From a virus, in UHGV virus genome UHGV-0126495: a DNA stretch of 19,147 nucleotides, one strand, 5' to 3'. Position 1 is the first letter of the stretch. Each line of letters opens with the position of its first letter. This document shows, in pieces, positions 1,008-4,770 of the stretch. The notes under the pieces are model-generated. The model did no database searches and was not told where the DNA came from. It saw only the letters and a program-made list of their open reading frames with translations. The position numbers and the translations under genes were made by a program.

Positions 1008-1261
1008 ACAACCAGACAACACCTTTTACCCCTGAACAATTACGTAAACAGGCACAGGAAATGTTGCGACAGGCGGAACAACTGGAAAAAACAGGTGTAA
1101 CAAAAGATGCCATTCGTCGGGATATGGTGCCAGCGCTCAGGGAACTGATGCAGGCGAAACACCGCGCACAAAAAGCGGTGGATGAGCTGGTGGATTGTGT
1201 GGCAGAGCTGGAAACCAGAGTTGGAAAGTTTGAAAAACTGGTGCAGGAGGTGCTGCGCTGA
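1004..1261 (+). CDS. hypothetical small coiled-coil protein (85 aa)
   Basis: ORF with TTG start at 1004 overlapping the helicase stop; GGAG at 992-995 about 8 nt upstream. Stop overlaps the next ATG at 1261. Charged, helical sequence with no recognised family. Confidence 0.45.
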
Positions 1262-1644
1262 TGCGTGATATTCAGATGGTTCTTGAGCGTTGGGGGGCAT
1301 GGGTGGCAAATAATCATGAGGATGTCACCTGGTCATCGATTGCAGCCGGATTCAAGGGACTTATTCCTTCAAAGGTTAAATCGCGACCGCAATGTAGTGA
1401 TGATGACGCAATGGTTATTTGTGGGTGTATGGCTCGTTTGAAAAAGAACAACAGTGATTTGCATGATTTGCTGGTAGATTATTATGTGGCTGGTATGACG
1501 TTTATGGCACTGGCCCGTAAGCATCATTGTTCTGATGGATATATAGGAAAAAAACTTCAGAAGGCTGAAGGAATAGTCGACGGAATGTTGATGGCACTGG
1601 ATGTTCGTCTCGAGATGGATCTTGAAGTTGTTAGATGTTATTGA
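1261..1644 (+). CDS. quuD: late-gene antitermination protein Q (phage 82 / QuuD type)
   Basis: 127-aa ORF starting [14 protein letters not shown]..., recalled as near-identical to the DLP12 QuuD antiterminator; conserved Cys-rich block [16 protein letters not shown]. Sits immediately upstream of a promoter/terminator region as in lambdoid phages. Confidence 0.8.
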
Positions 1645-1670
1645 TTAACGTTTGCTGGTAAAATTGAATA
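1635..1670 (+). promoter_or_regulatory. candidate late promoter (pR'-like) with extended -10
   Basis: TGgTAAAAT at 1656-1664 (TG at -15/-14 plus TAAAAT hexamer) directly after the Q stop; the -35 is weak. Position matches pR' in lambdoid phages. Confidence 0.3.
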
Positions 1671-1720
1671 AAAAAGGGGACGCAAAAACGCCCCCAAGAG
1701 TTTAGAGTAATAAATAACAG

Positions 1721-1750
1721 AAGGTTAAAAAGAAAAGACAAAATGTCTTT
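1721..1750 (-). terminator. candidate intrinsic terminator for the porin transcript
   Basis: Hairpin AAGACA-aaa-TGTCTT (1735-1749); on the minus strand it is followed by TTTCTTTTTAACC. Lies about 85-110 nt downstream of the porin stop. Confidence 0.4.
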
Positions 1751-1781
1751 CTTAATGCAGTGACGTGAGGGCGTCACCCAC

Positions 1782-1822
1782 ATGTTGTGGGAGATAAATA
1801 TCTCCCACAACATATCTTTTTT
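1782..1822 (+). terminator. strong intrinsic terminator (tR'-like) downstream of Q
   Basis: Perfect 13-bp inverted repeat ATGTTGTGGGAGA / TCTCCCACAACAT (1782-1794 and 1801-1813) with 6-nt loop, followed on the plus strand by ATC then TTTTTT (1817-1822). Confidence 0.6.
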
Positions 1823-1833
1823 AATAAAAAGAT

Positions 1834-2931
1834 TTAGAACTGGTAAACCATACCGACAGCAACAATATCGTCGGTGTTTATACCAAGACCTCTGGTGAAA
1901 TCATTTTTGTCAAGCAGGTTGATTTTGTAATCAACGAAAGTAGACATATTTTTGTTGAAGTAATAGGTTGCGCCTACATCAACATATTTAACTAAGTCTT
2001 GATCGCCCCATACTCCGAGATCTTTACCTTTAGATTGCAGGTAAGCCACGGACGGACGCAGCCCAAAATCGAACTGATATTGTGCAACAGCCTCAACGTT
2101 CTGAGCTTTATTAGCGACGAAGCGATCAGCAAATACCGTCATATTCTGGGTTTCAGAATAGGTAGTGGCCAAGTAAATGTTGTTAGCGTCATATTTCAGA
2201 CCAGCGGCCCAAACTTCTGCATTTTTACCGGAAGCAAATACTCCAGGAAGAACTTTCCCTAGATTAACTTGAGTGTCGGTACGGTCAGATTTCGCATAAG
2301 TTGCACCAATACCGAATCCTTCGTATTCATAGGTAGCAGAGAAACCGAAGCCATCACCGTTACCTTCGGTATAGTTATCGAGATCGCTACGATCGTTTTT
2401 GCCTTGGTACTGAGCAGCAAAGTTCAGACCATCAACCAGACCGAAGAAGTCGTTATTACGGTAAGTTGCAACACCAGTTGCACGCTGAGTCATGAATACG
2501 TCGGTTTGAGTCCAAGTATCACCACCGAATTCTGGCAGAACGTCAGTCCACGCACCGATGTCGTATGCTACACCGTAGTTACGGCCATAATCGATGGAGC
2601 CGTAGTCACCGAATTTCAGGCCAGCGAAGGCAAGACGGGTTTTATCTTTGGAAGAACCTTGAGATTCAGCACGGTTGCCTTTGAATTCATATTCCCACTG
2701 ACCGAAACCAGTCAGTTGATCATTGATTTGGGTTTCGCCTTTGAAGCCCAGACGAGCATAAGTTTTGTCACCATCGTGTTTATCGTTAGAGGAGAAGTAG
2801 TGCTTGGCATTAACTTTTCCGTACAGATCCAGTTTGTTGCTGTCTTTGTTATAAATCTCTGCTGCCTGAGCAGACATCGCCATTAATACTGACGCAGCTA
2901 CAGCAGAGATTGCCACTGTTAATTTTTTCAT
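1834..2931 (-). CDS. nmpC: outer membrane porin, OmpC/NmpC/Lc family (prophage-borne lysogenic conversion porin)
   Basis: 365-aa minus-strand ORF with signal peptide [23 protein letters not shown], mature N-terminus AEIYNKD and C-terminal ...VYQF typical of general porins; recalled as very close to E. coli NmpC / phage PA-2 Lc. AGGA 7 nt upstream of the ATG. Convergent with Q, as in DLP12. Confidence 0.9.
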
Positions 2932-3175
2932 CGTGAATCCTTAGTCCTTTTCGGAACTATTATTAAAAAATATTGTCACTGCGGCCTAAATATACATCTA
3001 ATCGGTATGGCTATTTCAAGATATGGAGTTTATTTAATGGTTCAAAGTGTGATCAAGATCTCGTTTATGCGTACTGGTAATTATTGATTGACGATGTTTT
3101 TGTAATGAGAGATGCGTTTCTGAAATGCAATGAAAAGTTATTGTTTTTGTATTTTATAATGTAAATTTTTTGCGT
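2932..3175 (-). promoter_or_regulatory. AT-rich porin upstream region with candidate sigma70 promoter and OmpR-box-like motifs
   Basis: Read on the minus strand: TTGAAA (plus coords 3014-3019), about 17 bp, then TGTATATTT, followed by a roughly 60-70 nt leader. Further upstream TTTACATTATAAAATAC and GAAACGCATCT resemble OmpR-binding boxes of ompC/ompF. Confidence 0.35.
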
Positions 3176-3180
3176 GCTGG

Positions 3181-3194
3181 TTTACGTACGTAAA
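3181..3194. promoter_or_regulatory. perfect 14-bp palindrome TTTACGTACGTAAA (candidate operator)
   Basis: Exact palindrome read directly; overlaps a possible -35 (TTTACG) with TATGAT at 3203-3208 sixteen bp downstream, upstream of the 3265 ORF. Confidence 0.3.
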
Positions 3195-3264
3195 AATTTA
3201 AATATGATGTTAAGAGTGGTCACTTTGCCACACAGCTTAAACCAGCCGCCAAACGGGGTTTTTT

Positions 3265-3573
3265 ATGCCCGAAAAGCGGCGCAGTACGTTAAACGCGCTG
3301 GTGGTTGCGAATACCGGTCTTTCAGCTTGCTGGCTTTTTCGACAAGAGTTATTGGTATGTCACGTTAACCGGAATAAGGGAAAAAGACATGCTAAAACAG
3401 CAGGATATGACCGAAACCGTAATGAATTAAGCGTCACCGAGCCGGCGACCGTCGGGGAAATTGCGCAGAATACGTACCTTTCACGCGAACGCTGTCAGTT
3501 AATACTGACCCAGCTTGTTATGGCGGGTCTGGCAGATTATCAGTTCGGTTGTTACAGACGCCTTCCTCAGTGA
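3265..3573 (+). CDS. hypothetical small DNA-binding protein (C-terminal helix-turn-helix-like segment)
   Basis: 102-codon ORF; C-terminal ATVGEIAQNTYLSRERCQLILTQLVMAGL looks like an HTH recognition unit. Bracketed by a candidate promoter/palindrome upstream and an intrinsic terminator overlapping its stop. N-terminal half is low-complexity, so the true start is uncertain. Confidence 0.35.
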   Translation: MPEKRRSTLNALVVANTGLSACWLFRQELLVCHVNRNKGKRHAKTAGYDRNRNELSVTEPATVGEIAQNTYLSRERCQLILTQLVMAGLADYQFGCYRRLPQ

Positions 3574-3587
3574 AGGCTTTTTTATTT
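3560..3587 (+). terminator. intrinsic terminator
   Basis: GCCTTC-ctcagt-GAAGGC hairpin (3560-3577) followed by TTTTTTATTT; overlaps the stop codon of the 3265..3573 ORF. Confidence 0.6.
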
Positions 3588-3723
3588 GTGGTAATGGGCG
3601 GCTGGTGGGTGTTAGCGGCACCTGCCAGCCATCTGCTCATGCGTTGGGGTCACAAGCAAACCTCAGGCCCATCTGCTTTGCGCAAAAGCGGAATGAGCCT
3701 ATCAGAGAAGTGCTTATTGATCT

Positions 3724-4770
3724 ATGGCCAATACTGTAAAAATATCCAGTTGTGAGTTAATCAACGCTGATTGCCTGGAATTTATCCAGACCTTACCGGA
3801 AAACTCTGTCGATCTGATAGTCACAGACCCGCCATATTTTAAAGTGAAGCCCGAGGGCTGGGATAACCAGTGGAAGGGCGACGATGATTATCTGAAATGG
3901 CTGGATCAGTGTCTGGCGCAATTCTGGCGGGTACTGAAGCCTGCCGGAAGTCTTTATCTGTTCTGTGGTCATCGCCTGGCATCTGACACCGAAATCATGA
4001 TGCGTGAACGCTTTAATGTGCTGAACCACATTATCTGGGCGAAGCCGTACGGACGCTGGAACGGGTGTAATAAGGAAAGTCTGCGGGCGTATTTTCCGGC
4101 AACAGAACGCATTCTGTTTGCTGAACATTATCAGGGGCCATACCAGCCCAAAAATGACGGCTATGCGGCAAAGGGGCGCGAGCTTAAGCAGCACGTCATG
4201 GCCCCGCTGATTTCTTACTTTCGTGATGCGCGTGAATCACTGGGAATAACGTCAAAACAGATAGCGGAAGCCACCGGAAAGAAAAACATGGCTTCGCACT
4301 GGTTTGGTATCAGTCAGTGGCAGTTGCCGAACGAAGGCGATTATCTGAAATTACAGGCGTTGTTTGCGCGTGTTGCAGCAGAAAAACATCAACGAGGGGA
4401 ACTGGAAAAGCCACACCACCAGCTGGTCAGCACATACAGTGAACTGAACCGGCAATATGCCAGTCTGCTGAAGGAGTACAAATCCCTGCGGCGTTATTTT
4501 TCCGTATCGGCTGCCGTTCCGTATACGGATGTCTGGACGCACAAGCCTGTGCAGTATTACCCCGGCAAACATCCCTGTGAGAAACCGGCGGATATGTTGC
4601 GTCAGATAATTACCGCCAGCAGCCATCCGGGAGATTTGGTCGCTGATTTTTTTATGGGGTCGGGGTCAACAATAAAAGCAGCATTATCGCTGGGAAGGCG
4701 TGCAATAGGTGTGGAACTGGAAGAAGATAGATTTAACCAGACTGTAATTGAAATAAAAAATAATCGTTAA
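3724..4770 (+). CDS. orphan DNA methyltransferase, beta-class amino-methyltransferase (probably N6-adenine; N4-cytosine not excluded)
   Basis: 348-aa ORF with motif IV DPPY at nt 3826-3837 near the N-terminus and motif I FFMGSGST at nt 4648-4671 near the C-terminus (IV before I is the beta-class permutation). No restriction endonuclease candidate nearby. Confidence 0.88.
   Translation: MANTVKISSCELINADCLEFIQTLPENSVDLIVTDPPYFKVKPEGWDNQWKGDDDYLKWLDQCLAQFWRVLKPAGSLYLFCGHRLASDTEIMMRERFNVLNHIIWAKPYGRWNGCNKESLRAYFPATERILFAEHYQGPYQPKNDGYAAKGRELKQHVMAPLISYFRDARESLGITSKQIAEATGKKNMASHWFGISQWQLPNEGDYLKLQALFARVAAEKHQRGELEKPHHQLVSTYSELNRQYASLLKEYKSLRRYFSVSAAVPYTDVWTHKPVQYYPGKHPCEKPADMLRQIITASSHPGDLVADFFMGSGSTIKAALSLGRRAIGVELEEDRFNQTVIEIKNNR

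Follow-up and report, generated by a model that had tools for sequence, protein, structure and literature searches.

The closest described relatives of the locus analysed here are the phage porin genes nmpC of DLP12 and lc of PA-2, which are followed by IpeX. The mechanism of IpeX is usually described as unclear, not simply complementarity-based, and the original ipeX paper of Castillo-Keller et al. in 2006 is said to report no complementarity of ipeX to the ompC leader. MicF and MicC, two antisense sRNAs of the host, target the ribosome-binding region of ompF and ompC to repress them. CpxQ, SroC and MicL are enterobacterial 3'-UTR-derived regulatory RNAs, each lying at the 3' end of an mRNA whose terminator it shares. 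The listed length of the DLP12 IpeX RNA is 167 nt (PMC12197685), and this RNA represses OmpC and OmpF (PMC5069750). The K-12 nmpC gene is a CRP target (PMC3105977; PMC11677980) and also an OmpR target that is repressed, with a ChIP-exo peak ~88 nt upstream of the ATG (PMC5438342 supplement; PMC11677980).

The window, i.e., the whole stretch of DNA that was analysed, is 19,147 nt of the virus genome UHGV-0126495. Its first part holds a complete NmpC/Lc-type phage porin transcription unit, which is a cassette in a phiP27-like lambdoid prophage. The porin gene lies between the gene for the Q antiterminator and the late region, on the strand opposite to Q. The coding features are as follows.

1261-1644, plus strand: Q antiterminator gene, QuuD-like, 127 aa, convergent with the porin gene
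1834-2931, minus strand: NmpC/Lc-type porin gene, intact, 365 aa (ORF list, NCBIfam, protein identity)
2931-2863, minus strand: porin signal peptide (homology with the annotation of the PA-2 lc record)
2862-1837, minus strand: mature porin (homology with the annotation of the PA-2 lc record)
1836-1834, minus strand: porin stop codon

The protein ends in YQF and scored 531.7 bits against the NCBIfam OmpC subfamily (cut-off 484). Its identity was 96.4% to K-12 NmpC (for which a reconstructed sequence was the reference), 95.3% to PA-2 Lc, 77% to Salmonella OmpD, and 63% to OmpC. Judged by its sequence, it is a general-diffusion porin of the OmpC/OmpF/PhoE family nearest to NmpC/Lc, and the original prediction of a prophage-borne NmpC/Lc-type porin is upheld by the ~95-96% identity and the lambdoid prophage context. 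The orientation, convergent with Q, is that of nmpC and lc, and the ~130 nt directly 5' of the ATG are common to all three, whereas the distal upstream sequence is unrelated to that of K-12 and PA-2 and differs in length. The prophage backbone is phiP27-like and not that of DLP12, and the porin gene is intact here, while K-12 nmpC is split by IS5. Salmonella OmpD differs in being chromosomal and in having no ipeX-like tail. Between Q and the porin gene, the window and DLP12 each have 189 bp, and Q and this intergenic region have diverged together, with 77% identity to DLP12.

Downstream of the stop codon, the porin transcript has a structured 3' UTR with the following parts.

1670-1833, minus strand: porin 3' UTR, divergent ipeX allele, 164 nt (homology, fold, covariance model)
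1814-1833, minus strand: hairpin H0
1782-1813, minus strand: hairpin H1, 14 bp, with compensatory changes relative to K-12 at the apex
1755-1781, minus strand: hairpin H2, with a conserved CCCUCA loop and, compared with K-12, two compensatory stem pairs
1730-1753, minus strand: hairpin H3 (fold and covariation)
1696-1729, minus strand: unpaired linker of ~34 nt containing the conserved block AACCUUCUGUUAUnUAUUAC
1670-1695, minus strand: Rho-independent terminator of the porin transcript (8-bp G+C-rich stem at 1695-1676, then T6)

Compared with the K-12/PA-2 ipeX region using blastn, the 3' UTR was 72-73% identical over 166-192 nt (E 3e-17), a match that reaches PA-2, K-12 and many phages; the PA-2 region downstream of lc is itself identical to K-12 at 189/189 positions. 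A covariance model built from the alleles, with the window among its 11 training sequences, scored the 3' UTR at 121.8 bits (E 3e-29). Full-length copies were found with this model only behind Escherichia phage-type porins, and in the other enterobacterial loci compared, neither blastn nor the model detected an ipeX-like tail after a chromosomal ompD/ompC-like gene. The window-type allele is rare, occurring in ~14 of 5426 complete E. coli genomes, compared with ~2500 for the K-12 type. Strain L3_E36_ETEC (NZ_LR882997) is one lysogen with this prophage. An Rfam search of the window using gathering and E-value thresholds gave no relevant match, and the K-12 ipeX region itself, run as a control, gave none either, so Rfam 15 holds no IpeX family and the absence of a match for the window is uninformative.

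From these comparisons, the 3' UTR is a diverged homologue of ipeX, a divergent member of a known system. As in DLP12 and PA-2, it runs from the porin stop codon to an intrinsic terminator, and the layout of H1, H2, H3, linker and terminator is common to all three. Counted from the stop codon and including the T-run of the terminator, its length is 164 nt, compared with 162 nt measured in K-12 and 167 nt annotated; the K-12 element is at NC_000913.3 574,362-574,528. The block AACCUUCUGUUAU and the H2 loop are identical in the window and K-12/PA-2. The window differs in the additional 5' hairpin H0, in an H1 that is a perfect stem with no bulge, in the absence of a weak A-U hairpin that can enclose the linker in the K-12 allele, and in two linker substitutions that extend a match to ompF from 10 contiguous bp in K-12 to 16. 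The original prediction had described a structured 3' UTR at about 1721-1833 with two hairpins and had thought an IpeX-like RNA possible. The bounds and the hairpin count were wrong, as the T-run ends at 1670 and there are four hairpins (H0-H3) plus the terminator; the structure itself was confirmed, and the likeness to ipeX, in sequence and in hairpin layout, was stronger than anticipated. The prediction had named a lack of ipeX similarity as refuting it, and the alignment showed the opposite.

The minimum free energy of the 3' UTR was -58.8 kcal/mol (z = -9.1), and none of 200 shuffles was as stable; the K-12 ipeX region gave z = -9.3. Five alleles folded independently gave the same helices. 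Across 17 distinct sequences, which represent about three independent lineages (window type, K-12 type, and E. albertii) in a model-fitted alignment that favours structure, 96.7% of cells were paired versus 40-53% with the partners slid, and 11 pairs had changed on both sides versus 3.4 +/- 1.4 in shuffles and 0-3 in the slid controls. Four of these both-side changes fell in H1 (helix 2) and four in H3 (helix 4). The linker had a mean unpaired probability of 0.77. Its conservation alone is weak evidence, because by our own estimate a 13-base identical run is expected about once per 189 nt at 73% identity. The 3' arm of H2, GUCACUGC, is similar to the RybB seed.

Assignment of the hairpins to one strand was attempted using folding energy and G-U counts and was given up, as neither showed any asymmetry. 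Both DNA strands of the Q-porin intergenic region fold equally well, and on the plus strand H1 and the T-run at 1814-1823 form an intrinsic terminator of Q transcription. Convergent termination could therefore account for some or all of the conservation of the hairpins. The full form of this explanation is that the region consists of convergent terminators and mRNA-stabilising hairpins with no role in trans, that its likeness to ipeX reflects shared ancestry of a Q-porin module, and that the match to ompC and ompF described below is chance in A+U-rich sequence. Termination of the plus strand by H1 and its T-run and of the minus strand by 1695-1676 agrees with it, as do the equal folding of both strands and the joint divergence of Q and the intergenic region. 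However, H2, H3 and a conserved unpaired linker of 34 nt would be superfluous in a pair of terminators, and repression of OmpC and OmpF has been reported for the homologous K-12/PA-2 sequence (PMC5069750, PMC12197685).

A different plus-strand role for the conserved intergenic block would be as a late promoter, e.g., a PR' with a Q-utilisation site directly 3' of Q. In lambda, PR' directly follows Q, and co-inheritance of the intergenic region with Q fits such an arrangement. The plus strand at 1645-1833 nevertheless has no sigma-70-like promoter, and its terminator at 1782-1813 stands immediately ahead of the porin gene, through which late transcription would have to pass in antisense. A better PR' candidate, TTTACG-16-TATGAT at 3181-3208, lies beyond the cassette. 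The block at 3178-3262 is conserved with the nmpC-essD spacer of DLP12 and is contiguous with phiP27 homology that begins at 3192. A late promoter in the Q-porin intergenic region was rejected on account of the missing promoter-like site and the better candidate, and we regard such a plus-strand function as very improbable.

Pairing of the tail with host porin mRNAs was tested by windowed and linker-only scans against shuffles. Full-length RNA-RNA duplex folding was dropped, as it ignores intramolecular structure and gives long duplexes that cannot be interpreted. Linker positions 1728-1714 show complementarity over 15 contiguous bp to the ompC ribosome-binding region from -19 to -5 (p = 0.002), and positions 1719-1704 over 16 contiguous bp to the ompF ribosome-binding region from -13 to +3 (p = 0.002); in the ompC leader, AUAACA is the predicted partner of the linker UGUUAU (1719-1714), and in the ompF leader, AGGGUAAU is that of the linker AUUACU. 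The K-12 linker paired with ompC at -26.7 kcal/mol, an energy as low being reached by 0 of 1000 shuffles. The same scans gave no signal with the ompA start region or with the start region of the phage porin itself. In the MB06231 allele, the sole change within the ompC seed is C to U opposite G, which retains a wobble pair, and the ompC and ompF target regions are near-invariant across E. coli. Because the linker matches the ribosome-binding regions of ompC and ompF and not that of ompA or its own porin, ordinary antisense repression is suggested.

For some linker and target combinations, the pairing-energy p-values were modest (0.011-0.04), a point in favour of a region of terminators and stabilising hairpins only. 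Set against this, both diverged alleles gave the signal with precisely the reported pair of IpeX targets, and it was missing from the ompA and self controls. On balance, an explanation by terminators and stabilising hairpins alone is judged unlikely.

The reading of the linker as antisense can be extended to a tentative general model, which we hold as a real possibility short of a probable one: IpeX-type tails would act by plain antisense, with a single linker carrying overlapping seeds for the ompC Shine-Dalgarno and the ompF Shine-Dalgarno-to-AUG regions, while the start of their own porin would be immune. Across 27% divergence, the alleles would have kept both matches or, in the window, lengthened them. 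If the model is true, the mechanism of IpeX becomes directly testable, and the rare window allele is a natural compensatory variant. The proposed mode, short pairing at the ompF Shine-Dalgarno/AUG and in the ompC leader, is that of MicF and MicC, to which the element is unrelated in sequence. Unlike those free-standing genes, it is an mRNA 3' UTR, and one linker would hold both specificities. It resembles CpxQ, SroC and MicL in its position at the 3' end of a coding transcript with a shared terminator; it differs from them in being phage-borne and coupled to the functional replacement of its own proposed targets.

Upstream of the porin gene, the following elements were located.

2932-3062, minus strand: proximal upstream block, common to all nmpC/lc alleles (alignments)
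2942-2938, minus strand: ribosome-binding site AAGGA
2982-2975, minus strand: RybB-site-like GCAGUGAC
2994-2989, minus strand: -10-like TATATT
3019-3014, minus strand: -35-like TTGAAA
3048-3063, minus strand: CRP-like site cGAGA-tcttga-TCACA, aligned with the CRP site annotated in PA-2 lc
3063-3177, minus strand: allele-specific hypervariable A+T-rich spacer, holding TTTACAT and GAAAC

The original prediction read TTTACAT and GAAAC as OmpR-box-like motifs and suggested control by EnvZ-OmpR. Both motifs exist, TTTACAT once at 3165-3159 and GAAAC once at 3120-3116 (both on the minus strand), at frequencies expected by chance (P = 0.11 and P = 0.39, respectively, against dinucleotide shuffles of the 69% A+T upstream region). 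The spacer around them varies among alleles in both sequence and length, and UMNF18, the nearest relative with the same upstream type, has lost them, having TTTATAT and TAGATAAAT at the aligned positions. A 20-bp OmpR matrix was made from six sites whose presence upstream of K-12 ompF and ompC had been verified. Its best score upstream of the porin was 11.3 bits, which 27% of shuffles attain; the TTTACAT site scored 6.7 and all of the cited motifs 6.7 or less, and the matrix scan found no phased tandem 20-bp sites upstream of the porin. Control by EnvZ-OmpR through these motifs was thus not borne out as stated.

Activation of the porin promoter by EnvZ-OmpR via the motifs at 3165-3116, as in ompC and ompF, would draw on their presence, on TTTACATTAT, which agrees with the first half of the ompC C1 site at 9 of 10 bases, and on the place of K-12 nmpC in the OmpR regulon (PMC5438342). 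Against it, besides the chance-level counts and scores, the missing tandem array, the loss in UMNF18 and the hypervariable spacer, OmpR represses nmpC in K-12, and its binding site there is ~88 nt 5' of the ATG instead of at about -190 to -234 (PMC5438342 supplement). We consider activation of this kind very unlikely. The K-12 array under the ChIP-exo peak, GAAAC-N5-TTACA-N5-GAAAT, is only partly kept in the window and is out of phase.

The conserved CRP-like site is, by alignment, a better-supported candidate control element than the cited OmpR motifs. Its core has 8 of 10 bases of TGTGA-N6-TCACA, and the UMNF18 allele has a perfect TGTGA-N6-TCACA core at this position. The pattern with up to 2 mismatches was not enriched in the whole window (8 found versus 8.9 expected), so the argument for CRP is one of alignment and annotation. 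The conserved TTGAAA/TATATT pair would give a leader of ~50 nt, but with a 19-bp spacer. A K-12 ChIP-exo table, by back-calculation, implies a start ~125-131 nt upstream of the ATG; such a start would put the CRP-like site at the very beginning of the transcript, which is at odds with activation.

The explanation that we favour, with moderate confidence for the whole, is an intact porin unit with an ipeX-homologue tail that would act in trans on OmpC and OmpF and with a probably CRP-dependent promoter. In the lysogen, transcription of the porin gene would most likely depend on cAMP-CRP through the conserved site at 3063-3048, and any role of OmpR would more probably be repression by way of the proximal region, as reported for nmpC of K-12, than activation through the distal TTTACAT and GAAAC motifs. 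The porin mRNA or a processed 3' fragment would then act in trans on the host major porin mRNAs by means of the two putative overlapping antisense seeds in the linker, one for the Shine-Dalgarno region of ompC and one for the Shine-Dalgarno-to-AUG region of ompF. With such seeds, production of the phage porin would block translation of OmpC and OmpF, and the host porins would be exchanged for the phage porin.

Apart from the diverged tail and the pairing model, the locus is an ordinary case of a known lysogenic-conversion cassette. The window provides a second, well-diverged allele of the ipeX tail, and a comparison of both alleles places the constraint on three hairpins, a loop, and an unpaired linker. 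NmpC/Lc-type phage porins alter the surface of the lysogen, so that phage receptors, antibiotic entry and antigenicity are affected. If the tail silences OmpC and OmpF, the swap from host to phage porin would be a single, self-contained genetic act.

The window belongs to a lambdoid prophage of the Escherichia coli type. The top complete-genome match of its 2.3-kb porin region (1400-3700) is 98.4% identical and comes from an ETEC isolate. The local gene order is listed below.

Gene order around the porin gene (window coordinates)
81-1007, + strand: replicative helicase, followed by a small ORF
1261-1644, + strand: Q antiterminator, QuuD-like
between Q and porin genes: intergenic region, 189 bp
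1834-2931, - strand: porin gene
between porin and methyltransferase genes: non-coding or small-ORF sequence, about 790 bp
3724-4770, + strand: DNA methyltransferase, followed by two tRNA genes

The porin gene is intact (365 aa) and matched the NCBIfam OmpC subfamily at 531.7 bits. Of the proteins compared, K-12 NmpC (IS5 removed) was 96.4% identical to it, phage PA-2 Lc 95.3%, and an E. albertii copy 94%; the values for Salmonella OmpD, OmpC, and OmpF were 77%, 63%, and 58.5%. The assignment to the NmpC/Lc type in the original prediction is therefore correct.

The 3' UTR had been placed at 1721-1833 with two hairpins, and these bounds were wrong. By terminator scanning and folding, the transcript ends in a G+C-rich hairpin (1695-1676) with a T6 run up to 1670, so the porin 3' UTR is 164 nt; its K-12 counterpart, measured in the same way, is 162 nt. 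IpeX, the RNA 3' of nmpC in K-12 prophage DLP12 and of lc in PA-2, is listed as a DLP12 RNA of 167 nt (PMC12197685). K-12 and the window both have 189 bp between the Q and porin genes, alignable over the full length. Alignment with the ipeX region, proposed earlier as a check, found similarity: using blastn, the intergenic/UTR region matched K-12, PA-2, and 35 other phage records at 72-73% identity (E 3e-17), and the PA-2 sequence 3' of lc is identical to K-12 (189/189). The K-12 type, 60-80% identical to the window, occurs in ~2500 of 5426 complete E. coli genomes; the window type occurs in 11 of the 5426 at ≥99% identity and in 3 more at 90-99%. By these alignments, the element is common and the window 3' UTR is one of its rare, diverged alleles. 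A search of the window against Rfam (15), which is without an IpeX family, gave no relevant match, and likewise none for the K-12 ipeX region. The K-12 RefSeq annotation has no ipeX feature between quuD and nmpC (NC_000913.3 574,340-574,529; 4341-4530 of the K-12 locus L001), so ipeX is invisible to routine annotation.

The window UTR folds at -58.8 kcal/mol, compared with -27.8 +/- 3.4 for shuffles (z = -9.1), and the K-12 UTR gave z = -9.3. Hairpins H1, H2, and H3 and the terminator are common to five alleles, each folded independently; the window differs in a small extra 5' hairpin, H0. A covariance model built from 11 alleles found full-length copies only behind Escherichia phage-type porins, including those of the relatives with window-type alleles, UMNF18 and MB06231, and no copy behind the chromosomal ompD/ompC-like genes of L086-L163, the other enterobacterial loci compared. 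Among 17 distinct model-aligned sequences, 96.7% of cells were paired, compared with 40-53% when partners were slid by 1-3 columns, and 11 pairs were changed on both sides, compared with 3.4 +/- 1.4 in shuffles and 0-3 in the slid controls; these counts come from only ~3 independent lineages and an alignment fitted to the covariance model. The compensatory pairs are located in H1, H2, H3, and the terminator. Two elements of the automatic consensus, namely a long-range helix that closes the fold and a weak A-U hairpin across the linker, were unsupported in the 17-sequence alignment and are broken in the window-type alleles. The 3' UTR of IMG/VR contig L018 was excluded from the structure counts; numerous A/T-to-C/G changes are concentrated in its H1 and H2 and disrupt pairing, which looks like sequencing or assembly error. 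Both DNA strands of the intergenic region fold equally well, and H1 read on the + strand (1782-1823), followed by CTTTTTT, was scored as an intrinsic terminator just 3' of Q, so that the terminators of Q and the porin converge, ~90 nt apart. For these reasons, part of the hairpin conservation may serve convergent termination.

The linker (1729-1696, ~34 nt) lies between H3 and the terminator and has a predicted mean unpaired probability of 0.77. The longest block common to the window and K-12 alleles in it is AACCUUCUGUUAU(A/U)UAUUAC. The linker was scanned against positions -50 to +30 of K-12 ompC, ompF, and ompA and of the window porin, with 1000 linker shuffles as the null. The window linker forms 15 contiguous bp with ompC at -19 to -5, over the Shine-Dalgarno (-19.6 kcal/mol, run p = 0.002), and 16 contiguous bp with ompF at -13 to +3 (p = 0.002). 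For the K-12 linker, the values were -26.7 kcal/mol with ompC (0/1000 shuffles as low) and -18.6 kcal/mol with ompF (p = 0.011). For either allele, pairing was at null level with ompA (p 0.4-0.5; -50 to +30, 1000 shuffles) and with the phage porin's own start region (p 0.56-0.91, 1000 shuffles). The original ipeX study reportedly found OmpA unaffected, and is also said to have found no complementarity to the ompC leader. The sole change within the ompC seed of the MB06231 allele is a C to U facing G, which keeps a wobble pair. The target regions are ≥99% identical to K-12 in 5363/5426 genomes for ompC and 4583/5426 for ompF, and the reading is therefore independent of which E. coli hosts the phage. 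We infer antisense action, in which the unpaired linker would pair with the ompC and ompF start regions. The IpeX-like RNA proposed originally finds support in homology and structure, with corrected bounds, and its function is what we infer. The predicted pairing pattern matches the reported repression of OmpC and OmpF by IpeX (PMC5069750, PMC12197685).

The 3' arm of H2, GUCACUGC (1765-1757, - strand), resembles the RybB seed, GCCACUGC. Its best full-length duplexes with ompC and ompF form at their GCAGUGGC sites (p ~0.01); this is a second, weaker lead, the arm being buried in a stem. The arm is also a perfect complement of GCAGUGAC, a RybB-site-like element of the porin leader (2982-2975, - strand) that most of the aligned alleles keep. 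This self-complementarity is lost in K-12 and does not exceed that of shuffles.

The window backbone resembles Stx2e phage phiP27, with homology at 487-1418 that resumes from 3192 to 4721. Where the window has its porin cassette (1419-3191), phiP27 (933-2500 of its locus L172) has a GIY-YIG nuclease gene, L22; the replacing part begins within Q, of which it includes the C-terminal two thirds, and continues through the intergenic region to the porin gene and its upstream region. In phiP27, stx2e comes after the methyltransferase and tRNA genes. Similarity to DLP12 falls in three segments, namely Q plus the intergenic region (77% identity), the porin plus 91 nt upstream (92.8%), and a short block, 3178-3262, which matches the nmpC-essD spacer at 85% and runs on into the phiP27 homology starting at 3192. 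This block holds a sigma-70-like match on the + strand, TTTACG-16-TATGAT (3181-3208), kept in every relative examined. We regard it as a plausible late promoter, with the porin cassette lying between it and Q. After it comes a small ORF (3376-3573, + strand) with a phiP27 homologue that carries the annotation TrmB-family regulator; this ORF runs into a + strand terminator (3560-3577) right before the methyltransferase gene.

Alignment of four upstream types gave three zones.

Zones upstream of the porin gene
zone 1, distal: conserved block, the candidate late promoter
zone 2: hypervariable spacer of ~115 to 235 nt, unrelated in sequence between alleles, holding TTTACAT and GAAAC
zone 3, proximal: conserved block of ~130 nt

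Short tandem repeats occur in the spacer, TTTTAGACATTTCATATA-like in MB06231 (L175 ~850-1010) and TTTTAGATA x3 in UMNF18 (L174 ~900-960). TTTACAT (3165-3159) and GAAAC (3120-3116), originally read as resembling OmpR boxes, each occur once upstream of the porin, as expected for 69% A+T sequence (P = 0.11 and 0.39). A matrix was made from six OmpR sites described in the literature, each confirmed at the expected position upstream of K-12 ompF and ompC. Over the 469-nt region 5' of the porin, its best score was 11.3 bits, equalled by 27% of shuffles, and the TTTACAT site scored 6.7. UMNF18, the nearest relative sharing the spacer type of the window, has TTTATAT and TAGATAAAT at the motif positions. 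With chance-level counts and matrix score, loss in UMNF18, and a place within the hypervariable spacer, the boxes find no support in the form first proposed.

K-12 nmpC is listed as OmpR-repressed and CRP-activated (PMC11677980; PMC5438342), with an OmpR ChIP-exo peak at 576,106-576,166 in older coordinates (PMC5438342). An offset of 777, derived from the ompF row of the same table, puts the peak centre ~88 nt before the nmpC ATG. Under the peak (L001 6884-6944, -118 to -58 from the ATG), K-12 has a phased array, GAAACcaaaa-cTTACAtctt-GAAATaatca (GAAAC-N5-TTACA-N5-GAAAT), whose first unit shares 9/10 bases with the second half of the ompF F2 site; the six-site matrix did not flag this K-12 array because of one invariant-C mismatch. 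Compared with it, the window keeps the last unit, but the TTACA unit reads CCATA and the phasing is broken. By analogy, any OmpR action on the window allele would be repression via the proximal block, not activation via the cited boxes.

A putative CRP-like site at 3063-3048 (cGAGA-tcttga-TCACA) is better supported than the OmpR boxes. In the alignment it falls exactly on the CRP site of the PA-2 annotation and is kept in all alleles, and UMNF18 has a perfect core (TGTGA-tattga-TCACA; TGTGA-N6-TCACA) at this position; the CRP pattern was not enriched across the whole window. Two candidate start sites are ~50 nt upstream of the ATG, past conserved TTGAAA and TATATT, and about -125 to -131, the latter derived from the K-12 ChIP-exo table; what the CRP-like site does would differ between the two. 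The system is already known, and the window is a new, rare, and usefully diverged member of it.
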